Part shown: piece by piece, positions 1 to 18,182 of the stretch
How the letters are laid out: each line of letters begins with the position of its first letter
Numbering within the stretch: the first letter of the stretch is position 1
DNA from: a virus
Strand: one strand, 5' to 3'
Length of the DNA stretch: 64,000 nucleotides
Virus record (IMG/VR): IMGVR_UViG_3300048591_000147
Span: 1 to 64,000 of that record
Made by a program: the position numbers and the translations under genes
Notes under the pieces: generated by a model
The model's input: the letters and a program-made list of their open reading frames with translations, nothing else
What the model was told of the DNA's origin: nothing
Databases searched by the model: none

Positions 1-130
1 TTACTCCAACAGTTACTCCAACAGTTACTCCAACAGTTACTCCAACAGTTACTCCAACAGTTACTCCAACAGTTACTCCAACAGTTACTCCAACAGTTAC
101 TCCAACAGTTACTCCAACAGTTACTCCAAC
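1..130 (+). repeat. Perfect tandem repeat of a 12-bp unit ('ttactccaacag', ~10.8 copies), in frame as (TPTV)n inside the fibre gene
   Basis: Exact 12-nt periodicity over lines 1-130. Frame 3 reads TPTVTPTV. The repeat runs off the window start. Confidence 0.9.
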
Positions 131-773
131 TATATCGATTACGCCTACAATTACGCCTACAGAGACTGTGACACCTACAGTAACTCCAACCACTTCGTCT
201 ACGTCCAATGACATTATATTTGATATTGTCCAAACGGTTGGATTAGATTTAAGCAACGCAAACAGAACCGCAACAGTGTCAAATCCGGCATGGTGGGAAT
301 GTCTTTCATATTGTAATAAATTAGTGGATGCGACTGATAGTAATTATATTGAAATAGAATGCACAGTGGTGGATGCAGCGGCGGGTCATATCATGGTGGG
401 CATTGGCAGTGATTACACGTTGGCGTTTCCACACAACTCACCAAATTCATATATGTATTACGCGCATGGGTCTATATGGAATGGGGGTAGTTCATCGTCA
501 TATGGTAGTTCATGGTTATCCGTGGGAACTCACAACATAGGCATATTACTGAAAAATGGTAAATTGTATTTTAGGGTGGATGGGGTTTGGCAAAATAGTG
601 CTGATGTAGACTCTGAAACCGGGTTCGCATTCTCTGGTTTGACTGGTTCGTTTAACGTATTGTTTAGCGTATCTGGAGACACAGATCCAAATGCATATGG
701 TACATTGAATAATACGTCAGGTCTTCTGGTTTATTCATTACCTACTGGCGCTTCCGTCTGGGGGCAGCTATAA
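1..773 (+). CDS. Tail fibre / receptor-binding protein, 5'-truncated by the window edge: (TPTV)n linker plus a C-terminal lectin-like globular domain
   Basis: The open frame from position 3 is continuous with ORF 168..773. The PT-repeat linker resembles those in fibres 12884..13894 and 13973..14908. The C-terminal ~190 aa are non-repetitive and aromatic/Gly-rich. Confidence 0.6.
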   Translation, partial: TPTVTPTVTPTVTPTVTPTVTPTVTPTVTPTVTPTVTPTVTPTISITPTITPTETVTPTVTPTTSSTSNDIIFDIVQTVGLDLSNANRTATVSNPAWWECLSYCNKLVDATDSNYIEIECTVVDAAAGHIMVGIGSDYTLAFPHNSPNSYMYYAHGSIWNGGSSSSYGSSWLSVGTHNIGILLKNGKLYFRVDGVWQNSADVDSETGFAFSGLTGSFNVLFSVSGDTDPNAYGTLNNTSGLLVYSLPTGASVWGQL

Positions 774-833
774 ACTATCTTCTCATATGTTATGGCATAA
801 ATAGTATGAATAATATTTTTATAGGATTAAAAA

Positions 834-1370
834 ATGGCTGACAGTAAAATCTCTGATTTACCATTAAGGGATGCATTAACAGGCGCGGAACAGTTCCCGC
901 TCGATCAGGGCTTAGTGACTGTGAAAGCATCGTTGGATGATGTTAAACAGTATTGTAATACTATACTAACTTTAACTGATGGTACTTGGTCTGGGATATT
1001 CTCAGAATATGGAATTCTAGGCGAAGCAGTGGCATTCGGTGAATTAATTTATCTAAGTGCTGCTGATAGTAAATGGTATAAAGCTGATGCAACAACAGCC
1101 GCTACATCTGGTGATGTAAAAGTTGGTGTATGTGTTGTAGGTGGGGTTTTGGATGCGGTTACAACGATATTATATATTGGTAGTATACGCGCAGACGCAC
1201 TGTTCCCAACATTTACCATTTCTGGCCCAGTAATGATATCAGAAACTCCGGGTGAAATGACACAAACCGCGCCAGTCACGAGCAATTCTGTGACAAGACG
1301 AATAGGATTCGCTAGCACCGCTAATGAAGTCCTGATAAATATCAGTAACGATTATTACACGCACATATAA
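834..1370 (+). CDS. Hypothetical virion/fibre-associated protein (178 aa)
   Basis: ORF with SD 'aaaaatggct'. Lies in the fibre operon. No motif recognised. Confidence 0.45.
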   Translation: MADSKISDLPLRDALTGAEQFPLDQGLVTVKASLDDVKQYCNTILTLTDGTWSGIFSEYGILGEAVAFGELIYLSAADSKWYKADATTAATSGDVKVGVCVVGGVLDAVTTILYIGSIRADALFPTFTISGPVMISETPGEMTQTAPVTSNSVTRRIGFASTANEVLINISNDYYTHI

Positions 1371-1387
1371 CAGGATATAAATTAATA

Positions 1388-2299
1388 ATGACTACACAAA
1401 CGTGGACGACTGCGCTAAATCATGCCAACACCGCTGGTTGGAGAGCAACACATTCTGAATTATCAACACATTTAACAACAGTGGGCGCGCCTAAGTCTGC
1501 CGATACTGGTCAAGTTGATTGGACAACGAATAACATACCAACAACGGCTGGTACACCTAGATATGAAATACGATATCTAAATGATTCATTGCACGCCACT
1601 TCTCCGATTTACTTTAAATTAGAGTGGGATAATGAAACCGCAGGCGGAACAATTCCATATATGTTCCTAACTGTTGGCACTGGGAGTGACGGTGCTGGCA
1701 CTTTAACTGGTGATGTGACTGCTAGAGTTGCAATATCTATTGGTGAATTATTATCATCAAACGTAACTGCAAGGGCTTCATATCTATGTGGAATTTCAGG
1801 TTATTTGGGTTTATCTTATAAAAGATACGCACAACATAACGGTGGCAGCGCCCCAATGGGATTTTCATTTTTTGCTATAAGCAGATTTAGGGATGCTTCG
1901 GGTACGCCTATTGATGGTGGATTTTATGTTTATTATTCATCTGGCGCAAATCATAATGTGTATAGGTATACTGTGAACACAACACTTAACACGGTTTCAG
2001 ACGATGGAAATGCTATTTGTTTCTTCCCCGGCGCAGTTGGAGCGCCCACTTTGGTGGGTGGTGAGGCACAGGTAATGCGCCATTTCGGCATGCAGCCTAC
2101 TGTTACATGTGTACCAGACTTTTTGAGTTACCTAAGTACAGAAATCGGAACTACAAGCACTTTTACGGCTACTCCAGTCGGCGTAACACCAATAACATAT
2201 TTGGCACTTGGTCCTGATGGTAGTGGTAATATAGCAGCACCCGGAATAGCATCTGTGCATGCAAGCCCTTATCACATGCTAGCCATGCGGTGGGAGTAA
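1388..2299 (+). CDS. Fibre-module protein (303 aa), paralog of 11950..12843(-)
   Basis: The N-terminal ~80 aa align with 11950..12843 ('SADTGQ(V/I)(D/N)W', 'YEIRYLNDSLH(A/G)T(S/A)PIY'). Confidence 0.6.
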   Translation: MTTQTWTTALNHANTAGWRATHSELSTHLTTVGAPKSADTGQVDWTTNNIPTTAGTPRYEIRYLNDSLHATSPIYFKLEWDNETAGGTIPYMFLTVGTGSDGAGTLTGDVTARVAISIGELLSSNVTARASYLCGISGYLGLSYKRYAQHNGGSAPMGFSFFAISRFRDASGTPIDGGFYVYYSSGANHNVYRYTVNTTLNTVSDDGNAICFFPGAVGAPTLVGGEAQVMRHFGMQPTVTCVPDFLSYLSTEIGTTSTFTATPVGVTPITYLALGPDGSGNIAAPGIASVHASPYHMLAMRWE

Positions 2300-2300
2300 A

Positions 2301-2648
2301 ATGCCTCATTATAATGCCACACCTGATATATTAGTTGGAGAAGGCGTTCCACTAGTCACGATTAATATCGTGCCAATTTATCAGTTCCCCCTATTTAATA
2401 CTGTGCCTCCCGGTGACAAAAGGATTGCTGCTGATAATCCGGCACGAGTAATTCTGGGTAGTGCTCCAGTGTCTAGAATAATAGACATATTCGATAAAGA
2501 AACTAATGTACATGTAGCTCGCACCACATCATCCGCTATTGACGGTACTTATAGCTTTGGCCAATTACCTAACAGAGAATATTTTGTTATATGTAGAGGG
2601 ATTAATGGAGAAAATGATACAATACACACAAGAGTGGCCCCAGTATGA
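2301..2648 (+). CDS. Fibre-module protein (115 aa), paralog of 11587..11946(-)
   Basis: Shared motifs 'VPPG(D/E)(K/L)R(I/V)A(A/G)D(N/S)P', 'APxSR(I/V)(I/V)D(I/V)FD(K/R)E', 'TTS(S/A)..DGTY.F'. Confidence 0.6.
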   Translation: MPHYNATPDILVGEGVPLVTINIVPIYQFPLFNTVPPGDKRIAADNPARVILGSAPVSRIIDIFDKETNVHVARTTSSAIDGTYSFGQLPNREYFVICRGINGENDTIHTRVAPV

Positions 2649-2884
2649 GTTATACGCCACCATCCGGTGATAGTGTCGGTTTTTTAGTATATCCTGACAT
2701 AGTATTACCAGAAATAAAGAAACAGATAAATGCACAAACTATAGTGGACGGTGAACCGCCCCCACCATATGGTGCTTACGATGCACCATTAGGCGATTCT
2801 GTCGGATTTGTAATAGATCCAGCACCAGTGGTCATAACCATTAGAAAGATAAATGGAATTGATATAGACCAGTTAATAGCATAA
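2645..2884 (+). CDS. Small fibre-module protein with a duplicated 'YTPPSGDSVGF / PLGDSVGF' motif
   Basis: The same 'YTPP(S/N)GDDVGGN' motif occurs twice at the C-terminus of fibre 12884..13894. Confidence 0.5.
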   Translation: MSYTPPSGDSVGFLVYPDIVLPEIKKQINAQTIVDGEPPPPYGAYDAPLGDSVGFVIDPAPVVITIRKINGIDIDQLIA

Positions 2885-2909
2885 ATATATTACTAATGCA
2901 GGAATTGAT

Positions 2910-3179
2910 ATGAAACTAATTGATCTGATACAAGAACATAAAGACGAGAATAAAGACATAAGCAAGGCGCCACCACCAGATTCGGAGTGGATAACAACTG
3001 CGCAAGCCGCGAAGATGTTAGGTGTTACCATGTCTAGAATCAGACAAATGATAATGGATGGTCAGATTTCTTCAAAATCACCGATAAAGGGTAGACGAGA
3101 TAATCTAGTTTCTAGAAAAACCATAACAGCATTATCAAAGAAAGAAAGAAAACCAACCGGACGTCCAGAAGGCACCTAA
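2910..3179 (+). CDS. HTH DNA-binding protein (excisionase/MerR-like helix 'AQAAKMLGVTMSRIRQMIMDGQI')
   Basis: Helix-turn-helix pattern followed by a basic C-terminal tail. Confidence 0.45.
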   Translation: MKLIDLIQEHKDENKDISKAPPPDSEWITTAQAAKMLGVTMSRIRQMIMDGQISSKSPIKGRRDNLVSRKTITALSKKERKPTGRPEGT

Positions 3180-3401
3180 ATGATTAAAATACGTAGTGAT
3201 TTTGGAAATTTAAGTATTGACGAAGACACAATTGCATATTACAGTGTGTATGCTGATTTATCTGCCAAGAAATATACAATAACCTTTTATTTTAAGGAGA
3301 CTGGCAGTTCTATCAACACCACATTATCAACAGTAGATGAACTGGTAAAGATAATAAAAGCTATAGATTTTCAATCAACATTTAAAAGGAAAACATTATG
3401 A
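3180..3401 (+). CDS. Hypothetical protein (73 aa)
   Basis: ORF abutting the neighbouring genes. ATGA overlap with the downstream gene. Confidence 0.4.
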   Translation: MIKIRSDFGNLSIDEDTIAYYSVYADLSAKKYTITFYFKETGSSINTTLSTVDELVKIIKAIDFQSTFKRKTL

Positions 3402-3625
3402 TAGTTGAGGTATATTCAAAAGATGGTTGCTCATATTGTGTCAGAGCAAAGCAGTTGTTAACCAATAAGAAAATTTCGTACAAAGAATACAAGTTGGGTG
3501 AGGATGGTATTGACAGAGCCTTCATACAGGAGAAAGTTGGAAAGCCTATAAGTACGGTGCCACAGATTTTCATTGACGGTAACCACATTGGCGGTTACAC
3601 TGAATTAGAAAAATATCTAAGATAA
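3398..3625 (+). CDS. nrdC: Glutaredoxin-like redoxin (T4 NrdC-like)
   Basis: Active site 'CSYC'. C-terminal 'TVPQIFIDGNHIGGY..L..YL' is typical of Grx/NrdC/NrdH. Confidence 0.7.
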   Translation: MIVEVYSKDGCSYCVRAKQLLTNKKISYKEYKLGEDGIDRAFIQEKVGKPISTVPQIFIDGNHIGGYTELEKYLR

Positions 3626-3633
3626 ATACTGAT

Positions 3634-3679
3634 AAAACCCTCGTAATGGATAAATAATTATAAATTACGAGGGTTTTTG
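3634..3679. terminator. Rho-independent terminator (bidirectional hairpin)
   Basis: 'aaaaccctcgtaat...attacgagggtttttg': 14-bp stem with an A-run on one side and a T-run on the other. Confidence 0.7.
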
Positions 3680-3680
3680 T

Positions 3681-3992
3681 ATGTTCGATATGACAATTTT
3701 ATTACTAATCATCTTTGCGGTCCTATCTTTTGTGGTGTATCACACCATTAAGACTAAGCTCACGTACAAGCCTTCTGAAGTCATTATTGGTAAACAGGTA
3801 TACATCCATCCTGAAACACGCTTGTGCGTCGATGTAGTGGACTTTGATGGCACTTCAGTGTACTTCCGCCTTAGCATCGAATCAGAAATCGCACCAATTA
3901 GTGTCTTACCCAAAAAAGAATTCCTATTACACTATAGTAAAGTGTTAAGACCGTCTACGATAAAATCAGACTACTCTGAAATAGACGATTAA
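3681..3992 (+). CDS. Membrane protein (N-terminal TM), 103 aa
   Basis: Hydrophobic N-terminus 'ILLLIIFAVLSFVVY'. Confidence 0.4.
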   Translation: MFDMTILLLIIFAVLSFVVYHTIKTKLTYKPSEVIIGKQVYIHPETRLCVDVVDFDGTSVYFRLSIESEIAPISVLPKKEFLLHYSKVLRPSTIKSDYSEIDD

Positions 3993-5258
3993 TCACTCAA
4001 AATTTGTGAGCACAAATTTCTTTGATTTAACATCTATGTATCGGTAATAGGGCTCGGTAAGAAACCAATACCAACGTGCTGGCATTTTAGGGTTTACCGC
4101 GTTTCCATACCCGTCAGTAACAATAAATACTGCGCCGGGATATTTCTTGAACTCTTTTAATACGCTAGTCTCTATGATGGAGAAACTTGTACCATATCCA
4201 GAAGGAAGTCTTGCGTCTTTCAAATCAATTTCTTCAACGTATGTAGAGAATCCAAAGAATCGCACATTGAATCTGTCCAATGGCACTGATTTTGCCGCGT
4301 TAAAAAACCGCTGTGTATAGTTTCTACAAGATGGTGAAGTGTCTATGTAGAATGCCACATCTATCTTTTCTGGTTTGATCTTAATAAATTCGTCATCAGT
4401 GGGCAATATAAGCGACTTGTCCAAAGTGGTGAACCGCCTATTAAGCTTCACCCATTGTTGATTCTGATGTTCTGTTTCTTTTAGTTTATTATTGACCCAT
4501 CGGTGTATAATAGTTTCCCATTTCTTCTTCTTTCTGATTTTCTTGTTCTGTAAGTACTGTGATATTTTACCAGAACAATCACCAGCATTTAATCCAGTCT
4601 CTTCACTTACGTCTTTTTGAATCTTGTTAAGAAGCTCAAGCTCTTGCACGGACATATTGTCCAGAATATCGTCTACTAGTTTGTCTGATGCGTCTGTTTG
4701 CTCCCATTGTGCATGATCATCCGCTAGACTTGGAAGTGCCTGATCCGTACTTGTCGAACCATCGGATGACTGACCATCTAGTTTATTGTTGAGCATTTCA
4801 AAATAATATTCAAAATTGTGGTTTGGTTGTAAATCGGGATCGTTTGGAAATACATTTTTTAACCAACATAATTCAGTGTTGGGATCTATTTCTTGCCTCA
4901 CAAAGTTATAGTATTTTACTAGGGATTCATTAATAGTTAGATCCATAGCGATGTTGGCAACGTGCATGGTACTCTTACTCATGCCGTTATTCACCATATA
5001 AATATATCGTGTAATATGGTTAAGCATGACATGCAGACATTCATGTGCGATATAAAATGTTTTTTGGTTTAAATCCAGAGTGTTCCAAAACTTCTCGTTC
5101 AATAATAATTTGAAATTGTTGTTCAACGGGTCGAAGCTGATAGCACAACGCTCAATCTCTTCGGTAAAGTATGGTTGACCCAGATTGAAAAACGTATGGT
5201 ACATATTGCCATACAACTGTAAATTATTTAAGATGTCTTGCTTTTCGTTGTTATCCAT
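3993..5258 (-). CDS. vWA-domain protein with an N-terminal HExxH metallopeptidase-like domain (CobT/DUF2201-like)
   Basis: 'IAHECLHVMLNH' zinc-peptidase motif. C-terminal MIDAS 'IDTSPS' ... 'TDGYG'. Divergent from the MoxR ATPase gene. Confidence 0.7.
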   Translation of the reverse strand: MDNNEKQDILNNLQLYGNMYHTFFNLGQPYFTEEIERCAISFDPLNNNFKLLLNEKFWNTLDLNQKTFYIAHECLHVMLNHITRYIYMVNNGMSKSTMHVANIAMDLTINESLVKYYNFVRQEIDPNTELCWLKNVFPNDPDLQPNHNFEYYFEMLNNKLDGQSSDGSTSTDQALPSLADDHAQWEQTDASDKLVDDILDNMSVQELELLNKIQKDVSEETGLNAGDCSGKISQYLQNKKIRKKKKWETIIHRWVNNKLKETEHQNQQWVKLNRRFTTLDKSLILPTDDEFIKIKPEKIDVAFYIDTSPSCRNYTQRFFNAAKSVPLDRFNVRFFGFSTYVEEIDLKDARLPSGYGTSFSIIETSVLKEFKKYPGAVFIVTDGYGNAVNPKMPARWYWFLTEPYYRYIDVKSKKFVLTNFE

Positions 5259-5320
5259 TTATAACCTTGATTTTTAGAGATTTCTACACATACATATGAA
5301 GACGATGGAATATTTATTGA

Positions 5321-6328
5321 ATGAATAAAAACATAATGAACCAATTGGAGTTTGCGGTCAAGAACAATTATAACGTTCTGCTGATTGGTGATGCTGGAGT
5401 TGGTAAAACAGCAGTCATAAAACAAGTGTTCGAATCGATGAACTTCAGTTATATGTATTTCTCAGCAGCGACCATGGACCCTTGGGTGGATTTCGTTGGA
5501 GTTCCAAAGGAAGTAGAAGATGCTGATGGTAATAAGTATCTGGACCTAATCAGACCTAAACAGTTTGCATTTGATACGGTAGATGCCATCTTCATGGACG
5601 AGTATAATAGGGCAGCGCCAAAGGTAAGAAATTCTACCATGGAGTTGATACAGTTCAAGAGTATCAATGGAAAGAAATATAATAGGCTCAAAATGGTGTG
5701 GGCTGCTATAAATCCATACTCAGAAGATGATAACAAGTATAATGTTGAGGAACTAGACCCAGCACAATTGGATCGATTTGATTTTCATATTGAGATACCG
5801 TACAAAATCAATATGGAATATTTTACATTGAAGTATCCGACAATCGCTAGACCTAGCGCGGAGTGGTGGAACGCTCTACCAGCAGAACAAAAGAAAATAG
5901 TCTCACCAAGACGATTGGATAAAGCATTACAAACATTTACTGAAGGTGGGGACTTATCGTGGGTGATTCCTAAAGGCGTCAATGTATCGCAATTAGCTAT
6001 TAGCCTAAAGTACGGCTGTTACCAAGACAGACTGAAGGAAGTGTTTGAAAGTAAGAATGAGGCTGATATTAAAAAATTGGTCAATGATAAGAATACTCTA
6101 AGTGACTTTGTCAAACATATCGTAAAGAACAAAGATTATTGTAATTTCTTCCTACCGTTTGTGTCAGACGAGCGACTGTCGTCCTTATTGGAACATGAAC
6201 AGATAATAGATTATTTGATGCAGCCAGAAGTTGTCATCATGCGAAAAAATTTGATCCGTAGCATTGTAAACACTAAATCGGTTAAATCAAATATATTGGA
6301 TAAGTTTACTAGTCTGCTGGCACGCTAA
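5321..6328 (+). CDS. MoxR-family AAA+ ATPase (CobS-like)
   Basis: Walker A 'GDAGVGKT', Walker B 'IFMDEYNRA'. 335 aa. Sits beside the vWA partner. Confidence 0.75.
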   Translation: MNKNIMNQLEFAVKNNYNVLLIGDAGVGKTAVIKQVFESMNFSYMYFSAATMDPWVDFVGVPKEVEDADGNKYLDLIRPKQFAFDTVDAIFMDEYNRAAPKVRNSTMELIQFKSINGKKYNRLKMVWAAINPYSEDDNKYNVEELDPAQLDRFDFHIEIPYKINMEYFTLKYPTIARPSAEWWNALPAEQKKIVSPRRLDKALQTFTEGGDLSWVIPKGVNVSQLAISLKYGCYQDRLKEVFESKNEADIKKLVNDKNTLSDFVKHIVKNKDYCNFFLPFVSDERLSSLLEHEQIIDYLMQPEVVIMRKNLIRSIVNTKSVKSNILDKFTSLLAR

Positions 6329-6922: not shown

Positions 6923-6931
6923 ATCGTTTCC

Positions 6932-7816: not shown

Positions 7817-9777
7817 AGTGGGGTAAATTTATGCCAAGGTCTTATATTTATGCCACAATATGCGCATAGTGCGGCACCTATATCGATCTGGGTGATCATT
7901 TTATACTCATGGTATAAAGCGTCGATCATTGTTTTGGCAACATACGAGCAGCAGTATAATACCACAGGACTGTCTATTTTATTTACATTGTTCTTAAGTT
8001 CATTATAGATTCTATCATGCTCATCCCATACGTTGTTGTTGGTAACAATATGAGTGAATTTAAAATATTTTGTCATCTTGCTCAGGTATTGAGGTCCAAC
8101 TATTATTATATTTCTTTTCTTGAATTGATCGAAATACTTAATCAGTTCACCATTGATACTTAACTTAGCCCACAACCCACCATCAACCAATTGTAAGTCC
8201 TTCAGATATGGCGTTATGAAACTCATCATATAAGGTTTTTGTAATACTTGGGACGCTATACCAATATAATATTTTGGCTTGCTCTTTATCACTGGTAACA
8301 TCCGCTCTTCGGCATATTTTTGCCCGGATTCATTTAATGTCCAATCTTTAAAATTGTATGGTGGGTGATTGGGTGGAACGCTGCTTGAAATGCCGGAATA
8401 TGATATTTTTAACATTGGTGACCACTCACCGTCATTATATCTGGCAAATGAAAATGGTATATTATTCTCTAAGTTATTGAGAAATAATTGATTAACATCA
8501 TTCTCCAGTGTTGTTATATTTGATGGTGTTATTAAAGGAAATTTGACCGTGCAATCATTGATAGTATACACACTATCTTCCGTGAAGAACTCAGGACATA
8601 CCAAGCGATATGCTTGTAAACCATCCTTTATCTGTTTCTTAATTTGATATGCTTTAGGATCTGCTCTTGATTCTAGATAATCAAATATTTTTTGTTGCTG
8701 CACGCCATAATCGAAACGCATAAATGAATGCGATTGAATGTTGGTAGACATTTGATGTAGCAGTTTACGATCAGCTTCTAACTTTTTAATTATATTGCAT
8801 GCTCTATCGACCTCATTATTCTTTATGATGAACATCATATCAGTAGTGTATTTGAACTGATTGTTACTGTTATGGATATCAGTTGTGATTAGCACTACAC
8901 CCTGCAATGCTGCTTCTATACCAAGAGGCCAGCCGTTGAATGCATCACCAGTCTCGGCGTTTATTAGAATGTCAACATGCTTATTATAGAATTCATCGAG
9001 TTCTACTTGTGCCTTCGGACTATAATTTGTTATATTGGCATCTGGGATACAATTACCAATGGATATAAATCTCACATTTAATGATGGAAAGGTCTTTTTA
9101 AATGTCGAGGCTATTTGACGATAACTATCACTTCCCTTACTGGCATTGTGCCCCATGTTAGAGAAGCAAACCGTCAGAGTCGATCTATTTAACTTTTTTT
9201 GTTGTGGCTTTTCATCTTTGTTTAAACATGTACTACCATAGCATGAGATATAGTTAGTGAAGCCATAATTACTCAACCATTTATCAGTCTTTTCTTGTGT
9301 GGAGATTATGTTGGCTTTTTTGTTTATTTTCAATATGTCTTCTTTGCCACCTAGCCCACCACCGGGATACAGATGAATGAACTGTTTTTCGTGCGGTACT
9401 TTAGTATATTCTTTGTTAAATTTTATGTAGTTTGACAAGAAAATGTGATATATTGTCTTATATGAATCTACGTTGAATTCGGTGCCAGTGGTGAAGAGAT
9501 AACTGAATGAACTTAGCCCATTGAATTTAGTACCATCTACCATTGTATTATACTTGTTCAAATGATTATATTGTGGATCAAATATTAGAATGTTGAAACT
9601 AGACAAATTGAAATACTTGGACATCTGTTCATAATCAACGTCATATGATATGTTGGCATAGGACTGTATCTTATTGACTAATATATCACAGTTACCACGA
9701 TCTATGAATGCTTTAGTCTCAGCAATGCGCCACTTTGCGTATTTTGATGGAAACAAAATATCTACTAATAGGTTCAT
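7813..9777 (-). CDS. Two-domain glycosyltransferase: GT-B/GT1-like N-terminal half plus the duplicated C-terminal domain shared with 6932..7816
   Basis: GT1-like 'ETGDAFNGWPLGIEAALQGVVLITTD' (E-x7-E region). The C-terminal 'ARYNDGEWSPML...' domain is paralogous to the neighbouring gene. Confidence 0.55.
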   Translation of the reverse strand: MNLLVDILFPSKYAKWRIAETKAFIDRGNCDILVNKIQSYANISYDVDYEQMSKYFNLSSFNILIFDPQYNHLNKYNTMVDGTKFNGLSSFSYLFTTGTEFNVDSYKTIYHIFLSNYIKFNKEYTKVPHEKQFIHLYPGGGLGGKEDILKINKKANIISTQEKTDKWLSNYGFTNYISCYGSTCLNKDEKPQQKKLNRSTLTVCFSNMGHNASKGSDSYRQIASTFKKTFPSLNVRFISIGNCIPDANITNYSPKAQVELDEFYNKHVDILINAETGDAFNGWPLGIEAALQGVVLITTDIHNSNNQFKYTTDMMFIIKNNEVDRACNIIKKLEADRKLLHQMSTNIQSHSFMRFDYGVQQQKIFDYLESRADPKAYQIKKQIKDGLQAYRLVCPEFFTEDSVYTINDCTVKFPLITPSNITTLENDVNQLFLNNLENNIPFSFARYNDGEWSPMLKISYSGISSSVPPNHPPYNFKDWTLNESGQKYAEERMLPVIKSKPKYYIGIASQVLQKPYMMSFITPYLKDLQLVDGGLWAKLSINGELIKYFDQFKKRNIIIVGPQYLSKMTKYFKFTHIVTNNNVWDEHDRIYNELKNNVNKIDSPVVLYCCSYVAKTMIDALYHEYKMITQIDIGAALCAYCGINIRPWHKFTPL

Positions 9778-10790
9778 GATTTAAATTTTTTGATGGCCGC
9801 ACAGATATAATTAATCTCAAAATCAGTTACATTACAGTGTAATGGAAAATTGATTATTCTGTCATATAAGTATGTGGCGTTATCATGGCCGTCAGCTATA
9901 GGTTTGTAATACTTGTTCGCCTCTATACCTATATCCCTAAATGCGTTTGGTGAGATGGGATTCTCGAATACTACTGGTAGATTACCATAGAAATTTCTGT
10001 CATTGAAATTGAATATTTTGACGTCTTTGTTATCGGTCAAGACCTCACAGTATTTTTTCTGCGCATTAAGATGCTTGTCAATGTCATAATTATCTATATG
10101 TTGTAAGATGAATGCGGCAGATACTTCGGATATCTTGAAGTTTGACGATTTTGGTTTGTGTATTCGGTTATAGTGAAAACCAAATCCACATATAGCCTGT
10201 AGTACTTCATACTCATCGGTGTCAACAACTAAAAATCCACCTTCTCCAAATCCAAATGTTTTAGTGTGATGTAGCGAACCAAATGATGCGTCACCCAATA
10301 AGCAAATGTTGACACCATCTTTATTACATGTTAGAAATGAAGATGCATTGTCATAGATTATGATTTTATCTTTGAATGTATTAATGTCAAAGTCCACTAC
10401 AGTACCAAATAGATTGGTTATTATGATACCATCGGCATCACCAACATCTTCTGGTCTAAGCGTGTATGTATTCAAATCTATATCGACAAGCCTAGTATTA
10501 GTTTCGTTTACTACACAACTTGGAAATGTAAACGATGGACTAACCCATTTCAATTTTCGTTTGTGTTTTGTTTCATAGTGGAATATTAGAGCGTGTAGCG
10601 CAGTGGTCCCATTCGATACGCACAATACCCTCTTGTTAGAAGGGCAATTAATCATTCTTTCTATTTGCTTTTCTAATAGGTCTTTGACTGGACCGTTATT
10701 TGTGAATTGGTTGTGGTCAGTGGATATCTTTAAATATTTCTGTACCAACTCGGAATCGATTGTTTTATGTTGAATATAGCTAATTTTCAT
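9774..10790 (-). CDS. DegT/DnrJ/EryC1/StrS-family PLP-dependent sugar aminotransferase
   Basis: 'GD..SFGSLHHTK...GEGG' (Schiff-base Lys region). 338 aa. Stop/start overlap with the GT gene. Confidence 0.65.
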   Translation of the reverse strand: MKISYIQHKTIDSELVQKYLKISTDHNQFTNNGPVKDLLEKQIERMINCPSNKRVLCVSNGTTALHALIFHYETKHKRKLKWVSPSFTFPSCVVNETNTRLVDIDLNTYTLRPEDVGDADGIIITNLFGTVVDFDINTFKDKIIIYDNASSFLTCNKDGVNICLLGDASFGSLHHTKTFGFGEGGFLVVDTDEYEVLQAICGFGFHYNRIHKPKSSNFKISEVSAAFILQHIDNYDIDKHLNAQKKYCEVLTDNKDVKIFNFNDRNFYGNLPVVFENPISPNAFRDIGIEANKYYKPIADGHDNATYLYDRIINFPLHCNVTDFEINYICAAIKKFKS

Positions 10791-10801
10791 TTACGTTCTC
10801 G

Positions 10802-11587
10802 TCAATTTGGTGGAATATCCATTGTGTCTGCGTCAAACAATGTTTTATATGGTGGATCTTCTCTTGTAACGTCAGTCACTTTTTCCCAAATATCGTCTTG
10901 AGTTCGTATAGTATCCAATCGCAGTTTGATGGATTTTATGAAATTCTGTTTGATGTTGACTGGTGGGCTTAAATAAAACTGCACTCTGAAATTTAATGAT
11001 GTAACTATGACCCGCTTATCAGCGAGTTTTGGGTAATTTTTGTTAAAATCTACATTAACTAGCTCTACGCTAGTGATTTTCGTCAAGTCGTGAAAGTCGT
11101 CAGAAGTTTGAATTTGTAATACAGGATCAAAGATCATTAATATCTGTTCTAATATCTGTAAATGTTGGTCTTCATTACTACAATACATTGAAAGCTCAAA
11201 TAATCCGTCATATGGTATTGGTTGAGCTTGATAGACTACTTTTATGTCATCTGGTAACGATCCGCCCGCTGGTAGCACGCTATGGCGCATGAAAGTTCCG
11301 ACACCTTTTCTTCTAGATGGTACTTGTTCCATTCCGGCAAAATCAGCCGCGAACATGGGCAATCGTATAGGTTTATTTTGTGTATTCTCAGAAAGAATTG
11401 CATCCACTATTCGACTAGAATTACCATACCGGATAGGCACATACATTAGATTCTTAGTAGAATTGAAATTGTTTTTTCCAACAGATACTTGCAGCCCGGA
11501 AAATATGGCCATGAATTGTATTATATAGCTTCTGATTTGTTCGTCATAGAAATAGGTATCTAAGTCTTTCTTGAAATCATTATCCAT
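10802..11587 (-). CDS. Hypothetical protein (261 aa), minus-strand fibre operon
   Basis: ORF with start/stop abutting neighbours. No counterpart in the plus-strand module. Confidence 0.45.
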   Translation of the reverse strand: MDNDFKKDLDTYFYDEQIRSYIIQFMAIFSGLQVSVGKNNFNSTKNLMYVPIRYGNSSRIVDAILSENTQNKPIRLPMFAADFAGMEQVPSRRKGVGTFMRHSVLPAGGSLPDDIKVVYQAQPIPYDGLFELSMYCSNEDQHLQILEQILMIFDPVLQIQTSDDFHDLTKITSVELVNVDFNKNYPKLADKRVIVTSLNFRVQFYLSPPVNIKQNFIKSIKLRLDTIRTQDDIWEKVTDVTREDPPYKTLFDADTMDIPPN

Positions 11588-11946
11588 TAGACTGGGTGAA
11601 CTCCGGGTATAATAACATCCCTTTCATTACTAGCAATAACGCCTCTAATAATTACATCATATCCTTGTGTACGGGCAGACAAATTGGTAAATTCATATGT
11701 ACCATCACCCGCTGATGTAGTTGAAGCGACTAGAACCTTAAACTCTCTGTCAAAGACATCCACAACCCGAGATGCTGGCGCCATTCCAACTAGTACTAAA
11801 CCAGTGGGAGAGTCGCCAGCAACTCTTAACTCGCCGGGAGGTACATATTCATTCACAATAAATGAGGGTGTGAATGTTAATATATTAGATAGCGGGGCTA
11901 CAGGAAATAATACAGTATCTAAATACGCATCAATAATAAGAGCCAT
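11587..11946 (-). CDS. Fibre-module protein, paralog of 2301..2648
   Basis: See 2301..2648. Confidence 0.6.
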   Translation of the reverse strand: MALIIDAYLDTVLFPVAPLSNILTFTPSFIVNEYVPPGELRVAGDSPTGLVLVGMAPASRVVDVFDREFKVLVASTTSAGDGTYEFTNLSARTQGYDVIIRGVIASNERDVIIPGVHPV

Positions 11947-11949
11947 AGG

Positions 11950-12843
11950 TTACTCCCAGATTAACCCGAAATAATCGCGCCATGACATATTATTTTCAAG
12001 CACAATAAATGTTTTTGGTGTAACACCAAGAGTAGTGCAGGTAAATGTTGTTCCTAGTGTTAAACCATCAGTTGATGACAATGATACTACGTTAGATAAC
12101 GGCTGTATTAGTGGCATTGCACAATAATGTCGTGCCACCTGATAATCACCCGGAACACCAGCATGAATAGTCCCTGACGTACCGAGAAGACCGGGCATGA
12201 ATGCATATGCGTTACATCCAAAAATCCCAACATCAGTAGATGACCAAGTGTATCCAGTGGTAAATTCATATGTTGTGACTGAGGGACACACAGTGACAGT
12301 AGCTACATAAACGACAACGCCCTGTGCGGTAGGTGTTCCAGAACTGTCTACTGTACGATGTATTACAAGCCCAGAAACAGCTCCAGATGTAAAAACTACA
12401 TTACACTTTAATGCAAACCATACACACCCTTCTACCATACACGCATAAGTTTGTTTGGCCAGAACTGTAGAATCAAGAACGAATTGAGAAGAATAACATT
12501 GAACACGCGCCACGAATATACCTGTGATGGTGCCGCTTCCATTAGAACCAGTACCCACAGTTATCCATATTGATGGATATGTATGAACAACACCATTACC
12601 ATATTCTATTTTAACATAAATTGGTGCAGTGCCGTGTAATGAATCATTTAAATATCTTATTTCATATCCAGCAGCGGTATCAGTCGATCCTGATTTGTTT
12701 ACAGACGCCCAGTTTATTTGACCAGTGTCTGCGGATTTAATGAATCCTACCGCTGTTAAAGCATTTGAAAACGCCAACCCCCATGCTCTGAAGTTAGCAG
12801 TTGCTGCATGTGAAATTAATGTTGTATAATTATTTGTTGCCAT
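11950..12843 (-). CDS. Fibre-module protein, paralog of 1388..2299
   Basis: See 1388..2299. Confidence 0.6.
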   Translation of the reverse strand: MATNNYTTLISHAATANFRAWGLAFSNALTAVGFIKSADTGQINWASVNKSGSTDTAAGYEIRYLNDSLHGTAPIYVKIEYGNGVVHTYPSIWITVGTGSNGSGTITGIFVARVQCYSSQFVLDSTVLAKQTYACMVEGCVWFALKCNVVFTSGAVSGLVIHRTVDSSGTPTAQGVVVYVATVTVCPSVTTYEFTTGYTWSSTDVGIFGCNAYAFMPGLLGTSGTIHAGVPGDYQVARHYCAMPLIQPLSNVVSLSSTDGLTLGTTFTCTTLGVTPKTFIVLENNMSWRDYFGLIWE

Positions 12844-12873
12844 TTTTATAATACCTTTAGTAGTTCGTTACAT

Positions 12874-12881
12874 TATTTATA
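12874..12881 (-). promoter_or_regulatory. T4-type late promoter motif TATAAATA (reverse strand) upstream of 11950..12843
   Basis: The plus strand reads 'tatttata', ~30 nt upstream of the gene's start codon. Confidence 0.4.
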
Positions 12882-12883
12882 CG

Positions 12884-13894
12884 TTAGGCGCACAAATTAC
12901 CGCCTACGTCATCGCCGCTTGGTGGTGTATATCCAGTGACTATATTTCCACCCACATCATCACCATTCGGTGGCGTGTAAGTGCAACCTACTACATATGA
13001 CGGGCTAGGAGTCACGGTTGGCGTAACTGTTGGTGTTACCGACTCTGTAGGAGTAATAGTTGGAGTGATTGAAGGCGTCACCGTTGGCGTCACGGTTGGT
13101 GTAACAGTCGGCATTACTGACTCTGTAGGAGTAATAGTTGGTGTTACAGTCGGTGTAATTGTAGGCGTCACAGTCGGTGTTACAGACTCTGTCGGTGTAA
13201 TGGTTGGTGTAACAGTCGGTGTTACAGTTGGTGTAATCGTAGGCGTAATTGTAGGCGTTACCGTAGGCGTCACAGTTGGTGTAATTGTAGGCGTCACAGT
13301 TGGTGTAATTGTAGGCGTCACAGTTGGTGTTACCGTTGGAGTGACCGAAGCGGTTGGTGTAACAGTCGGTGTAACACTAATCGTTGGTGTAACAGTCGGT
13401 GTAACTGACATCGTTGGTGTCACTGTTGGTGTTGGTGTTGGAGTTCTAGTTGTTGTAGGTGTAATGGTCACCGTGGGTGTTATTGTAGGTGTTACTGTAG
13501 GCGTCACAGTCGGTGTAATGGTTGGAGTAATAGTAGGTGTGACTGTTGTTGTAGGCGTCACAGTCGGTGTTGGAGTTGGAGTTGGCGTGACGTTTATTAC
13601 ACCATCGTTTAACGGTTTTATGAACAATACATTACAAAAGCCAGAAACGCTTTCTGAAAAATATATGTTAATCGACGAATCAGTTGCTTCGACATAATCT
13701 GGATATATTAATTTGTTATCAGTGTCAAAAACTTGAATTAATAGATTATCGGTATTGAATGTGTGTGAAATGTTCCAAACGCTAGTAGCTACAACTTGTG
13801 TGTTGGTCGCAACAGCAGGATTACTAGAAACGTCGACTGTTTCTAGTTCATTTGTCTTTGTGTTTATATAAATTTTCTTAAAACTAGAATTCAT
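12884..13894 (-). CDS. Tail fibre protein with ~200-aa (TPTV/TPTI)n linker and C-terminal 'YTPP(N/S)GDDVGGN' x2
   Basis: Unique N-terminal ~100 aa, then PT repeats, then a C-terminal motif shared with 2645..2884. Confidence 0.65.
12990..13590 (-). repeat. Imperfect PT-linker coding repeat (codon-diversified)
   Basis: Translates to [11 protein letters not shown]... This produces the spurious antisense ORF 12981..13697. Confidence 0.8.
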
Positions 13895-13972
13895 GGGTCA
13901 TTCACCACTCACTAGTTCTAGTCCACAATATGATTTCATTTTATCACTCTTTAAGATATTTATTAATACCAA

Positions 13973-14908
13973 TTAAATTGGCGTTACAGATGGGGTAACT
14001 GTTGGAGTCACAGATAACGTAGGAGTAACTGTTTCCGTAGGTGTAATCGTTGGGGTCACAGATATTGTAGGGGTTATCGTAGGCGTCACAGATATTGTTG
14101 GTGTGACTGTTGGAGTGATAGTTGGAGTAGGGGTTATCGTCACTGGTACACAAGTAATTAATGGAGATCCAGCCTCCATTTCTATATCTGAATCATCTTC
14201 CATTGTTATCGGGCTGCAATTCTCCATCAACATCGCCTTAATCACATCTGTCGTAGTTGGTGTAATTGTAGGTGTAATAGTTGGCGTAACGGTGACAGTT
14301 GGGGTCACAGTTTCTGTAGGAGTAATGGTTGGTGTTAAACTAATAGTTGGTGTAATAGTTGGCGTGACGGTGACAGTTGGAGTAATAGTCGGAGTAACCG
14401 TAGGTGTCGGTGTAGGTGTTCTAGTTGTCGTAGGTGTCGGTGTAGGTGTTCTAGTTGTCGTTACAGTTGGTGTGACAGTCGCAGTTGTAGTTATTGTAGG
14501 AGTAATAGTCACAGTCGGCGTAATAGTTGGTGTTACGGTCGGCGTAATTGTAGGTGTAATGGTTGGAGTTATTGTAGGTGTAATGGTTGGTGTCACCGTT
14601 GGAGTAGGCGAATTTGTCACCTGTACCAAGGTTACATTAGGAATTGAAAAATGTATTGCTACCGTCCCAGTAACTATATCAGAAAAGTTGAATACTAAGT
14701 GGCTACCAGTGTCTATTACACTATTGGGTATGATGATTTCATTATTAGCGATAACTACGAATGAATAATCAGAAGAGTGTTTCTTGATGGTAACTTGGGC
14801 GGCATTGAATTCATAGATTACATCATTTATGTCGTCTGGTAGCGGACCGTTGAATAAAACGGTATTCCCTGTTTCTATGTCTAATGTGTATCGATACAAG
14901 ATATTCAT
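13973..14908 (-). CDS. Tail fibre protein with two PT-repeat linkers separated by an acidic Cys-containing insert
   Basis: Unique N-terminal domain, then PT repeats ~14263..14596 and 13976..14158. Confidence 0.65.
   Translation of the reverse strand: MNILYRYTLDIETGNTVLFNGPLPDDINDVIYEFNAAQVTIKKHSSDYSFVVIANNEIIIPNSVIDTGSHLVFNFSDIVTGTVAIHFSIPNVTLVQVTNSPTPTVTPTITPTITPTITPTITPTVTPTITPTVTITPTITTTATVTPTVTTTRTPTPTPTTTRTPTPTPTVTPTITPTVTVTPTITPTISLTPTITPTETVTPTVTVTPTITPTITPTTTDVIKAMLMENCSPITMEDDSDIEMEAGSPLITCVPVTITPTPTITPTVTPTISVTPTITPTISVTPTITPTETVTPTLSVTPTVTPSVTPI
14263..14596 (-). repeat. PT-linker coding repeat
   Basis: TPTxTPT periodicity. Produces antisense ORF 14103..14768. Confidence 0.8.
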
Positions 14909-15858
14909 CTGTTTATCAATACTTGGTCAGTGATGTCAACGAATATGCTATTACTGTCTACTATAAAACCTATTCTCTGCATCGAGTACTCATTTGGTAC
15001 GGTAGTGGTTATTTCACCATTTTTCCCAACGAAAACTGTGGTCATTGGCGGTTCACTCCAATTCCAAGAGTTCGGATTTGATATCTTACCAAATTTTATA
15101 AATCTTACTACTTCACCGTTTGAATATGGTGCCAGTGAAACGCCTACACATTGTCGTGTGATATCCGTGCTGGATGCTACACCTAATTTGTTATAGTCCT
15201 TATAACATACACAATAATTTGCTGGGATCGTTTCTATAGCCTTAGCAGTGATTGCATGGCCCTCGGCTTTAGTGGATTGATCTAAAGCGTTCTGGTAGCT
15301 AATAAATGATTCAGTAGTTAAGAACGCACCACTACCAAATTTGTCTAATCTTTTAACAGGTTTTCCAGCATCATCAAATAAGATCTGGCCAGAGTAATTA
15401 CTTTGATTCAGTCCAACTGTAGAGCCGACAGAATATGCATTAACAATCGAACCGCTTTGTAAGTATCCTACAAATAAACGAACCTTATCTACCCAGCGAT
15501 TTCCAACCCTAACCTGCATGACTTTAGTCTTTAAATTAAAGAAGTGCTGGTCAGCGACTGGCGAAGCTGGTATTGTTGACCCGTATGTTGGTGCTACTGT
15601 CGTGTAACCAAAAGTTCTAACTCCAGTAGGAATGTCAATATCTATATAAAGATAATAGTTGTTGCTGCTTGGGAATGACCCAGTCCATGCGGTTAGGTTG
15701 GTTTCTGATTCTACTAATAGGTAATTATGGTTACCGTGGGCAAAAGTTCCGATGAATGGGGTAGAATCACAAATCAAACGAACATTATTACCAACTTTTG
15801 ATAAAAAAGATGGACTTGTTTGGACTTGAACTAGACCTTGGCGAAAAGATAATAACAT
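14905..15858 (-). CDS. Tail fibre / receptor-binding protein (317 aa)
   Basis: First gene of the minus-strand fibre operon. Ser/Thr/Asn/Gly/Tyr-rich, fibre-like composition. Confidence 0.5.
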   Translation of the reverse strand: MLLSFRQGLVQVQTSPSFLSKVGNNVRLICDSTPFIGTFAHGNHNYLLVESETNLTAWTGSFPSSNNYYLYIDIDIPTGVRTFGYTTVAPTYGSTIPASPVADQHFFNLKTKVMQVRVGNRWVDKVRLFVGYLQSGSIVNAYSVGSTVGLNQSNYSGQILFDDAGKPVKRLDKFGSGAFLTTESFISYQNALDQSTKAEGHAITAKAIETIPANYCVCYKDYNKLGVASSTDITRQCVGVSLAPYSNGEVVRFIKFGKISNPNSWNWSEPPMTTVFVGKNGEITTTVPNEYSMQRIGFIVDSNSIFVDITDQVLINR

Positions 15859-15887
15859 TAAGATTCCCTGTTTTGTATATTTATTTT

Positions 15888-16187: not shown

Positions 16188-16226
16188 GATTGCACCAACC
16201 TTTCAAATAATATGTCTATTTATCGT

Positions 16227-16234
16227 TATAAATA
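16227..16234 (+). promoter_or_regulatory. Late promoter motif TATAAATA
   Basis: Exact octamer ~25 nt upstream of the 16259 ATG. Confidence 0.4.
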
Positions 16235-17181: not shown

Positions 17182-17216
17182 AAGCCGGATAGTAAAAGAA
17201 TATAGGGTGTTACTTT

Positions 17217-17917: not shown

Positions 17918-17967
17918 CGCTCGGGATAAAAGCTGTATAGTAGATGACACAACCAGAAGGAAACAAA

Positions 17968-18069: not shown

Positions 18070-18076
18070 ACAAAGA

Positions 18077-18100: not shown

Positions 18101-18151
18101 CATTGGTAAAATAAAACTCTCCAACATTTATTGTAATTAAAATTACAAGCG

Positions 18152-18159: not shown

Positions 18160-18182
18160 CTCTTAATACTGGAGAGTTTTAT

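Follow-up and report, generated by a model that had tools for sequence, protein, structure and literature searches.

The window, i.e., the 64,000-nucleotide stretch of viral DNA analysed here (IMG/VR record IMGVR_UViG_3300048591_000147), carries two oppositely oriented copies of a small gene cassette within its first 15,858 positions. On the plus strand, A303 (1388..2299) is followed by B115 (2301..2648), and on the minus strand, inverted and with its A gene 9 kb away, A297 (11950..12843) is followed by B119 (11587..11946). In pairwise alignments, A303 and A297 are 38% identical across 288 amino acids (E = 3e-40), and B115 and B119 are 49% identical across 86 amino acids (E = 7e-21). The original prediction that these genes have minus-strand paralogs is thus borne out, and because the homology lies in non-repeat domains, it does not reduce to similarity between low-complexity Pro-Thr (PT) repeats. 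Profile scans of every ORF in the window return no A or B genes other than these two of each.

The B proteins are probable small β-sandwich partners of A. In B119, residues 50–119 are ordered and residues 1–47 are predicted to be disordered; tested against Transthyretin-like, CarboxypepD_reg and SdrD_B β-sandwiches, B gives weak CarboxypepD_reg and SdrD_B matches, and its fold is generic. The comparisons show that A and B travel together: at other loci a B ORF lies directly downstream of the A gene in 12 of 12 cases, and the identities of the two proteins co-vary across relatives in an identity matrix. Within the A family, the N-terminus is conserved and the C-terminus is variable, and the N-terminal half contains invariant or nearly invariant polar residues (D39, Q42, D66, K77, E79 and R166).

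A short double motif is associated with each cassette. The 79-residue ORF C79 (2645..2884, plus strand) contains two copies (2651..2680 and 2777..2806), and the C-terminus of the PT-linker protein PT336 (12884..13894, minus strand) contains a Cys-bracketed pair (12950..12979 and 12902..12931). These two proteins had been proposed as a third paralogous pair; the double motif is real, but no similarity extends beyond it (pairwise E = 0.001), and all that they have in common is 10–12 residues of the form Y-[TD]-[PA]-P-x-G-D-x-V-G, twice per protein. The motif, also written Y-x-P-P-x-G-D-x-V-G, occurs four times in the window versus none in 100 shuffles, and it is also kept in relatives, one of which, L004, has a C79 homologue (53% identical) in the same position. 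On the plus strand the motif forms a separate ORF after B, and on the minus strand it is fused to the end of the PT protein before A. The proposed mirrored gene order holds only in part, and A precedes B in both cassettes.

Proteins with long PT linkers flank both cassettes. At the plus-strand edge lies the 3′ part of one such gene (1..773, frame from base 3), the start of which is off the window; because of synteny with L010, L004 and ORF174 of Xanthomonas phage XacN1, its missing N-terminus is probably the conserved ~375-residue domain of this clade. The ORF174-type anchor adjoins ligase, ClpP and primase genes and not structural genes. Its linker contains the 12-bp unit TTACTCCAACAG in a perfect tandem array (1..130, plus strand), which codes for (TPTV)n and counts 10.8 copies at 100% matches in TRF, as had been predicted. 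TRF and a periodicity check place the array into window base 1, and since it is cut by the window edge, 10.8 copies is a lower bound. Base 148 is where an independent contig (L003) has its start, and perfect TPTV arrays are located at contig ends, i.e., at assembly breaks; recent expansion of the array, as proposed, is reasonable, but for an array at such a break the length is only a minimum. The minus-strand linkers, also as predicted, are codon-diversified, using four Thr, four Pro and four Val codons versus two, one and one in the perfect array, and they include a perfect 30-bp × 2.1 duplication (14399..14461, TRF). Between the strands, the inverted PT repeats are only 70–85% complementary, which is weak for present-day homologous recombination.

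The plus-strand linker leads into a C-terminal tip domain of 194 residues (189..773), possibly of SPRY/concanavalin-A-like fold. The tip itself has no Pfam match and no PDB sequence match; its sole relative found is a PT-tethered domain (35% identity, E = 8e-19) in a 3075-residue protein encoded upstream of gp15 in L128, where SPRY is matched at E = 0.001 (19.6 bits, against a Pfam threshold of 26.3) and a Laminin_G_3 match comes next (E = 3.7e-13). On the minus strand, PT336 consists of a ~97-residue N-domain that matches phrog_21918, a codon-diversified PT linker of ~200 residues and the C-terminal double motif. PT311 (13973..14908, minus strand) consists of an N-domain, a PT linker, the acidic segment 'MLMENCSPITMEDDSDIEME' (14174..14233) and a second PT linker, and its homologue occupies the same position in L010. 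The same tip is thus found on another anchor in L128, and the C-terminal end carried by the ORF174-type anchor is a different one in each of XacN1, L010, L004 and, judged from synteny, the window; on these comparisons, the PT linkers join interchangeable anchor and tip modules. Of the prediction that PT-linker receptor-binding proteins head the modules, the PT proteins are real, and the plus-strand one has a tip domain; their receptor binding is putative. Two further genes lie in the flanks: p178 (834..1370, plus strand), which encodes a small protein, precedes A303, matches phrog_12121 weakly and is kept in position in L004 (63%), with its N-terminal 61 residues conserved in L070 (57%); and p317 (14905..15858, minus strand), the first gene of the minus-strand run, which matches phrog_4368 and shares 42% identity over its C-terminal ~125 residues with the N-terminal part of an L070 PT-linker protein. 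Neither has a Pfam match at E ≤ 10.

The cassettes bracket a backbone block (2901..11589) that encodes an HTH protein, a glutaredoxin, a VWA/AAA pair, glycan-synthesis genes and gp15, and that forms a single colinear block with L010 (blastn, 74.7% DNA identity across 8740 bp). The borders of this conserved 8.7-kb block coincide with the C79 stop on one side and the gp15 start on the other; it lies outside the cassettes, yet it sets their inner boundaries. Conservation of its glycan-synthesis set (DegT, PglD-like and GT-D-like) extends to L010 and, for part of the set, to L004. The tail sheath stabiliser/tail completion protein gp15 (10802..11587, minus strand), directly downstream of B119, is identified by PF16724 (T4-gp15_tss; E = 8e-40, 137 bits versus a cut-off of 25) and phrog_227 (E = 1.9e-36), and is 50% identical to gp15 of XacN1. 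A T4-type late-promoter-like sequence, TATAAATA (12874..12881, minus strand), precedes the start codon of A297 by about 30 nt; it is only a hint, since the 14 such sequences in the window do not exceed the 9.2 ± 3.3 expected by chance.

This layout calls to mind an invertible host-range switch of the Mu G or P1 C type, in which recombination between PT repeats would flip the ~13-kb segment and swap the tip and cassette carried by each anchor. PT-coding inverted repeats do flank the segment (arms 1–160 and 13149–13308), the anchor-linker-tip architecture is present on both sides, and the anchor to which the motif-A junction is attached differs between the window and L010. However, the repeats, at ~70–85% complementarity, are of low complexity, there are no short, nearly perfect border repeats, and the segment holds essential-looking genes such as gp15. 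Furthermore, Pfam and PHROG scans, confined to selected ORFs in 1..16.2 kb that do not include those at 3180..3401 and 3681..3992, show no invertase or recombinase, and inverting the L010 arrangement does not yield that of the window because gp15 adjoins the same anchor in both. We regard such a switch as highly improbable.

Comparison with relatives bears on the age of the cassettes. A297/B119 is 55–57%/66–75% identical (global identities) to cassettes of other phages versus 42% to A303/B115, and the A tree places the two A genes in separate clades; judged by these measures, the cassettes are anciently diverged, each being closer to cassettes of other phages than to its counterpart in the window. 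Both are already present in L070/L012, a more distant 307-kb relative with a gp15 only 67% identical to that of the window, where they stand in direct tandem before gp15: on one strand, a giant virion structural protein, p317-like, p178-like, A and B are followed by a PT-motif protein, A′, B′, gp15 and a sheath-like ORF. The closer relative L010 is without the gp15-side cassette, which must therefore be dispensable or replaceable, and has tandem A genes on the other arm that are 61% identical, i.e., recent duplicates. Between the window and L010, backbone proteins are 71–90% identical and A and B only ~39–49%, which shows cassette exchange against a conserved backbone.

The original prediction saw in these genes a within-genome duplication that yielded two alternative receptor-binding modules and two host ranges. 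The cassettes are indeed paralogous, different tethered proteins stand in front of each, and a conserved N-terminus with a variable C-terminus, as in A, is typical of receptor-binding proteins. The identities, the tree and the presence of both cassettes in the distant relative, however, all speak against a duplication that took place in this genome, and the ORFs scanned show no switch; there is little likelihood that this account is correct. A putative host-range role of the cassettes is consistent with cassette replacement and with the N-to-C gradient of conservation in A.

The predicted structure of A is that of a compact α/β protein that matches both gp47 and gp48 of Pseudomonas phage JBD30, the tail-fibre-forming subunits (PDB code 8RK3). 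Identities to these are 11–14%, hhalign of the A profile with gp47 and gp48 gives probabilities of only 0.3% and 1.2%, and a profile search of PDB sequences returned no match. Likewise, gp47 and gp48 match phrog_687 (E = 1e-101 and 5e-97), outside which A303 and A297 fall, with no PHROG match at E ≤ 0.01. With no link at the sequence level, the functional analogy rests on the predicted fold. The A and PT proteins match no Pfam family at E ≤ 0.1, with β-helix, collar, fibre-repeat and intramolecular chaperone domains absent. A classical trimeric tail fibre or tailspike was considered and rejected, as no fibre or spike domain was found and A is compact α/β. The genomic setting agrees with the fold: A297/B119 stands directly upstream of gp15, the L070/L012 members lie before gp15 and a sheath-like ORF, and in L007/L008 a T4-type baseplate cluster holds two A-B pairs, flanked by gp6 and a gp7-like gene and with gp8 nearby. 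The plus-strand cassette itself is outside any structural cluster. The designation as a tail-fibre module is upheld by the predicted gp47/gp48 fold, the abutment of the minus-strand cassette on gp15 and the family member in a baseplate cluster.

In JBD30, the gp47/gp48 tail arms bind the pilus, and the authors suggest a hydrolase role for gp47. This suggestion, together with the invariant polar residues of A, favours a reading of A as an enzyme on surface glycan or cell wall and of the cassettes as depolymerase-like accessory modules, which we nevertheless consider improbable.

Each JBD30 fibre is built by a heterodimer of gp47 and gp48, two paralogues of similar fold, and as A matches both, A303 and A297 could be two subunits of a single heteromeric arm, for which both cassettes would be needed at once. 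Exactly two A genes are present in each of four better-sampled large phage genomes (the window, L010, L070/L012 and L007) whatever their arrangement, and multi-copy A loci are common (25 of 80 IMG/VR loci, within ±8 kb around A). The other 55 of these 80 loci, however, have a single A within the same ±8 kb, which indicates that two types are no general requirement of the family; moreover, the A genes of L010 are recent duplicates and not two conserved subunit classes, and the B and motif copy that belong to each A of the window suggest two self-contained units. The single arm is a possible, but rather unlikely, reading.

The position of A297/B119 directly before gp15, a protein that acts where the tail faces the head, also raises the possibility that the PT-tethered proteins and A/B belong to the virion without being baseplate arms, and instead make up neck, collar or whisker fibres or head fibrils for loose, reversible adhesion. 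In T4, gp15 is immediately preceded by the genes wac, 13 and 14. Long flexible tethers would suit whisker- or fibril-like appendages, and XacN1 reportedly shows no classical tail fibres. Against this, the sole solved structures of the gp47/gp48 fold are baseplate-attached fibres, and the L007 family members lie inside the baseplate wedge cluster; we consider such a location unlikely.

The reading that we favour, at slightly better than even chances, is that the window carries a small structural cassette in two copies, both old and each inherited separately, and that this cassette forms host-contacting arms at the tail periphery. Each cassette would comprise a ~300-residue globular A, a ~115-residue β-sandwich B and the short double motif, accompanied by proteins made of an anchor domain, a long PT tether and a variable tip. 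We infer that both are probably late-expressed and become part of the tail periphery. There, A together with B would make lateral arms that touch a structure on the host surface; the conserved N-terminal ~120 residues would hold A in the assembly, and its variable C-terminal part would face the ligand. Linked to the A gene next to it, the double motif would probably serve in docking or assembly. A297/B119 would have been inherited with the backbone, and A303/B115, together with p178, C79 and the tethered tip, would be the exchangeable cassette. The repetitive PT-linker DNA may have served as a site for rejoining anchors, tips and cassettes in different relatives, and perfect 12-bp arrays would make tether length unstable. 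The two cassettes could be used together, or as one heteromer like gp47 and gp48.

JBD30 is a Mu-like siphovirus, whereas the window derives from an uncultured jumbo T4-like myovirus. The JBD30 paralogues are adjacent, as are the A genes of L010 but not the distant, inverted A genes of the window. The latter also come with a B partner and a linked motif apiece, features not described for JBD30. With Mu G and P1 C the window has in common opposed fibre-related gene sets behind constant N-terminal parts and flanking inverted repeats, but it differs in its degenerate coding repeats and in a ~13-kb segment that includes gp15 and metabolic genes. Pro/Thr-rich interdomain linkers are known in secreted glycoside hydrolases, and glycosylated surface proteins of phages and giant viruses are comparable; the long (TPTV)n-type linkers of the window likewise sit between folded modules, and the glycan-synthesis genes lie between the cassettes. 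Glycosylation of these linkers is pure conjecture, and a literature search returned nothing specific.

Among 50,697 phage records, the sole tblastn match of A is in Tunturiibacter phage Tunturi_5 (PP885688.1; 33% identity), in which four tandem A-family genes, gp30–gp33, follow a 1470-residue protein annotated as a tail fibre. Like the window, Tunturi_5 shows the tendency of the A family to multiply, but its copies are in tandem, 40–56% identical to each other and expanded within their own lineage, with no B homologue or motif detected. The closest cultured clade by gp15 (42–50% identity) is that of XacN1 and its relatives Xoo-sp13, CM1, RAS14 and RsoM2USA. ORF174 of XacN1 has the conserved N-domain and long PT linker in common with this clade's anchors and the ligase-ClpP-primase synteny of L010, but a different C-terminal module after the linker. 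In XacN1, a sheath gene follows gp15, whereas in the window glycan genes do, and tblastn, with A as the query against cultured phages, finds no A homologue in XacN1. XacN1, the cultured type phage, has been reported to be without visible tail fibres (PMC5852040), and the tail-arm-like cassettes of the window point to how phages of this group may attach to cells.

The first 16 kb of the window are from a T4-like jumbo myovirus. The minus-strand gene at 10802..11587 encodes gp15, the tail sheath stabiliser (Pfam PF16724, E 8e-40), whose best cultured relatives are those of Xanthomonas phage XacN1 (50% identity), Xoo-sp13, the Stenotrophomonas phages CM1 and RAS14, and Ralstonia phage RsoM2USA. 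The window's proteins are placed by the protein database on a 314,956-bp JGI metagenome contig, and megablast of positions 1..16000 against 50,697 phage records returned no close DNA relative. Jumbo phages of the XacN1 group are reported to be without recognisable tail fibres (XacN1: PMC5852040).

Two copies of a protein A are encoded in this region, A303 (1388..2299, plus strand) and A297 (11950..12843, minus strand), each followed by its partner B, B115 (2301..2648, plus) and B119 (11587..11946, minus). The A proteins share 38% identity across 288 aa (E 3e-40) and the B proteins 49% across 86 aa (E 7e-21); the similarity lies in non-repeat domains, and both pairs are paralogous as originally predicted. 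Profiles of the two families detect no further A or B copy in the 64-kb window. Homologues of B were sought with B115 alone in a word-based search (3 matches) and with a four-sequence alignment (23 matches). The suggested third paralogous domain, shared by C79 (2645..2884, plus) and the C-terminus of the Pro-Thr (PT) linker protein PT336 (12884..13894, minus), reduces to the motif Y-[TD]-[PA]-P-x-G-D-x-V-G, present twice in each. A fourth pair, p178 (834..1370, plus) and p317 (14905..15858, minus), was considered and is not counted, the similarity being limited to 34 C-terminal residues (E 0.004).

The motif is specific, with 4 copies in the window and none in 100 shuffles, and in the loci compared it always adjoins an A gene. 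It forms the C-terminus of a PT protein just upstream of A on the window's minus strand and in two related loci, L010 (NCBI JACCDG010882236.1, 173 kb, gp15 90% identical to the window's) and L012, and is bracketed in these proteins by cysteines (C-x-Y...L-C). On the window's plus strand and in locus L004 it is a separate ORF of 79 or 80 aa after B, and in L007 the 167-aa ORF that separates two A-B pairs has four to five degenerate copies. We infer that the double motif is a docking or assembly element. The proposed mirrored gene order is correct in that A precedes B in both cassettes, but it does not extend to the motif, which follows B on the plus strand and is fused to the end of PT336, before A, on the minus strand.

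Our data do not support the view that the cassettes arose by duplication within this genome. The two A copies are placed apart in a 67-member family tree, in clades that each include sequences from other contigs, and A297/B119 are closer to pairs in other phages than to A303/B115: global identities are 57%/75% to the pair adjoining gp15 in L012 and 55%/66% to a pair from a different phage type with an SU10-adaptor context, versus 42%/42% to the window's own A303/B115. The latter are 62%/73% identical to the L004 pair.

Comparison with L010 delimits the cassettes. Window positions 2901..11589 and L010 11256..19931 form one colinear block with 74.7% identity over 8740 bp, with its borders 17 bp past the stop codon of C79 and at the start codon of gp15; the two cassettes are thus exactly the variable arms flanking a conserved core. 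Between window and L010, identity is 71-90% for backbone proteins but about 39-49% for A and B. On its plus strand L010 carries a 489-aa protein (conserved N-domain, PT linker and double motif) followed by A288, A289, B116 and the window-type backbone; on its minus strand, a 186-aa protein with a PT336-type N-domain and a PT linker, lacking the motif, directly precedes gp15, and there is neither A nor B. The sole other notable DNA similarity to the window is between 12594..13223, spanning PT linker, motif and the A297 N-terminus, and the corresponding plus-strand junction of L010 (PT linker and motif of the 489-aa protein, A288 N-terminus), 67% over 641 bp, and the PT-motif-A junction is therefore found on different anchors and on opposite arms in the two genomes. 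A simple inversion between PT arrays leading from an L010-like to a window-like order was rejected, as gp15 has an unchanged neighbour and strand relation in the two genomes. An invertible switch of the Mu-G type is unlikely, given that the inverted repeats are degenerate, that no recombinase was found among the ORFs scanned in 1..16.2 kb, and that neither observed arrangement is obtained from the other by simple inversion.

In the 307-kb relative IMGVR_UViG_3300013288_000004 (loci L012 and L070; gp15 67% identical to the window's), each end is a 106-nt perfect repeat of the 12-bp unit TGACACCAACTG (L012 1..106, L070 9703..9808), and the identical arrays indicate that the genome closes through a TPTV array. 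Its apparent ends or circular closure hence fall in TPTV-coding DNA within a gene, and the 106 nt may not represent the full array. Across the junction, the order on a single strand runs from the gene for a 2253-aa virion structural protein (phrog_10938) through those for a PT protein resembling p317 and a protein resembling p178 to A and B. Next is a protein made up of an N-domain, a PT linker in which the junction falls, and the double motif; A' and B' come after it, then gp15 and an ORF whose N-terminus is sheath-like. Both cassettes are thus in direct tandem in this more distant relative. Two A-B pairs also lie near gp8, flanked by gp6 and a gp7-like gene, in a 153-kb T4-like genome (L007/L008), and Tunturi_5 has four tandem A genes after a 1470-aa gene annotated as tail fibre. 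Among 35 gp15 relatives in IMG/VR, A and B lie beside gp15 only in L011 and L012. That exactly two A genes are kept in four large genomes despite rearrangement would agree with A303 and A297 pairing as gp47 and gp48, the tail-fibre-forming subunits of Pseudomonas phage JBD30, do; with a single A copy in 55 of 80 loci, and with the two A genes of L010 being recent duplicates, such pairing is possible but doubtful.

The PT-linker proteins beside the cassettes are themselves modular. By synteny, the off-window part of the plus-strand PT gene (1..773) probably corresponds to a domain of about 375 aa conserved in L010, L004 and XacN1 ORF174, which is 41% identical between L010 and XacN1 and lies in a ligase-ClpP-primase neighbourhood in both. 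This anchor with its PT linker carries four unrelated ends, i.e., a Cys-containing module of about 65 aa in XacN1, the double motif in L010, a "LLMHNGGYILRVDGGKILLN" tail in L004 and, by synteny, a 194-aa domain in the window (189..773). The only relative of the 194-aa tip in the collections searched is a PT-tethered domain in L128 (35% identity, E 8e-19), part of a 3075-aa protein directly upstream of gp15 and the sheath gene; it matches SPRY weakly (E 0.001, below cut-off) and is followed by Laminin_G_3 domains. Hence, one tip occurs on different anchors and one anchor bears different tips, always via PT linkers. A protein-based metagenome scan gave no relative of the tip domain, and neither the tip, p178 nor p317 had a usable sequence match in PDB, Pfam or cultured phages. 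A second conserved element, roughly [LIM][LIM]-x-[EQH]-N-[GC]-x2-3-[LIM]...D/N...[LIM]-x-[LIM] (e.g., MLMENCSPITMEDDSDIEME and LLMHNGGYILRVDGGKILLN), stands right after the PT linkers of several different proteins (window 14174..14233, minus; L004 9303..9362; L070 7392..7451; L010 20801..20860), and may be another interchangeable tip.

The plus-strand linker DNA at 1..130 is a 12 bp x 10.8 array with 100% matches (TRF), built from a single Pro codon, a single Val codon and two fixed Thr codons. It abuts the window edge, and a 1.2-kb contig assembled independently from a different sample, which matches window 148..1386 at 100% identity, starts just past it. L011 also ends in PT-coding sequence, and the similarly perfect end arrays of the 307-kb relative have a different unit and lie in a different PT gene. 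Perfect TPTV arrays appear to be longer than short reads resolve, base 1 of the window is probably a contig end, and 10.8 copies would be a minimum for this array. Such arrays break short-read assemblies, and linker lengths and local gene order in these contigs are to be read with caution. Recent expansion of the perfect array, as first proposed, is strengthened to recurrent recent expansion by perfect arrays with different units in different genes; the codon diversification ascribed to the minus-strand linker is seen in PT336, and PT311 (13973..14908, minus) carries a perfect 30-bp x 2.1 duplication. The plus-strand ORFs 12981..13697 and 14103..14768 ('GVTVGV...') are unlikely to be genes, being antisense mirror-image products of PT arrays, and antisense ORFs of this kind may be reported by gene callers.

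Directly downstream of gp15 is a glycan-synthesis gene set (6329..10790, minus). Its genes encode a DegT-type aminotransferase (9774..10790), then a 654-aa protein (7813..9777), the product of 6932..7816 and a PglD-like acetyltransferase (6329..6922). The C-terminal half of the 654-aa protein matches the 6932..7816 product at 47% identity (E 4e-92), and the L004 counterpart of that product has a Pfam GT-D-like match. L010 shares the set and L004 part of it. Since the set lies between two cassettes with many Thr-Pro linkers, it is conceivable, though conjectural, that the tethers are glycosylated; a literature search on PT-linker phage fibres and glycosylation returned nothing specific. Linker DNA might serve as a built-in shuffling and length-variation system for tethered, glycosylated, modular adhesins in these apparently fibreless phages, a reading that we consider improbable. 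In this reading, tether length would be governed by the hypermutable perfect 12-bp arrays; genes, strands and phages would exchange anchors, tips and whole motif-A-B cassettes by way of joints in the repetitive linker-coding DNA; and the Thr-rich tethers might be O-glycosylated by the DegT, PglD-like and GT-D-like set.

A divergent pair conserved in L010 and L004 consists of a DUF2201_N metallopeptidase-like/VWA-type protein (3993..5258, minus) and a MoxR/CobS-like AAA ATPase (5321..6328, plus). Just upstream of the minus-strand run, a 99-aa ORF (15888..16187, minus) has a lipoprotein-type N-terminus, MRFIVLLILAISLYGC, and a weak phrog_1919 match; a spanin-like or an exclusion lipoprotein is a possible product. 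Sequences of the ATAAATA type, similar to T4 late promoters, are found shortly upstream of p178 (790..805), A303 (1372..1382), an HTH gene (2880..2890), A297 (12874..12881), p317 (15865..15880) and the lipoprotein gene (16215..16234). Exact TATAAATA is not enriched in the window (14 versus 9.2 ± 3.3 by chance), and a sigma-70 promoter and terminator scan performed no better than shuffles. Over positions 17000..62000 the plus strand carries a long series of ORFs, most of them small, and GC skew is steadily positive; A/B profiles and PT/motif patterns detect no cassette-related sequence there.

The best-supported model is that two co-resident, old A-B-motif cassettes encode tail-periphery arms with the predicted gp47/gp48 fold. 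One cassette would be inherited with gp15 and the other exchangeable, both beside anchor-tether-tip proteins whose modules would be re-assorted at PT linkers. Placement of A and B at the neck or whiskers is an unlikely alternative to peripheral arms. In most comparisons the N-terminal ~120 residues of A are conserved and the remainder is variable (successive identities of 62/45/27/27/21% for A297 versus A288 and 80/73/52/48/46% for the L010 tandem pair), the evenly conserved A303 and its L004 orthologue being the exception; this gradient resembles that usually seen in proteins which attach through a conserved end and face their ligand with a variable one. The arguments for A being an enzyme are its conserved polar residues and the description of gp47 in the JBD30 paper as a nitrilase-superfamily hydrolase, a remark that Pfam does not reproduce, with no family at E <= 1 for gp47 and gp48 (JBD30 locus L126, 6083..7964), and an enzymatic role is very unlikely.

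For host recognition by XacN1-group jumbo phages, the region supplies concrete candidates, namely A with its partner protein and linked peptide motif, and anchor-tether-tip proteins whose parts can be seen in different combinations from one relative to the next. Should A proteins prove to be adhesins, a role open to testing could be assigned to thousands of phage genes now called "hypothetical", and their conserved-N/variable-C layout and cassette behaviour would help in predicting and engineering host range. An exhaustive profile search yields 3,599 cluster representatives (50% identity), 3,301 of them at E <= 1e-10, and nearly all of the 150 best matches are 280-305 aa long. In a viral structure library, A matches proteins from Atu_ph07, Mendera and FoX4 that are either uncharacterised or labelled "virion structural". 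The match to gp47 and gp48, obtained with a predicted model of A, is structural only: both JBD30 proteins belong to phrog_687, to which A has no match, profile-profile comparison of A with gp47 and gp48 is not significant, and the A-family profile has no match among PDB sequences. A therefore stands for a large family without annotation, linked by its predicted fold to the pilus-binding arms of JBD30, the sole structurally described example.
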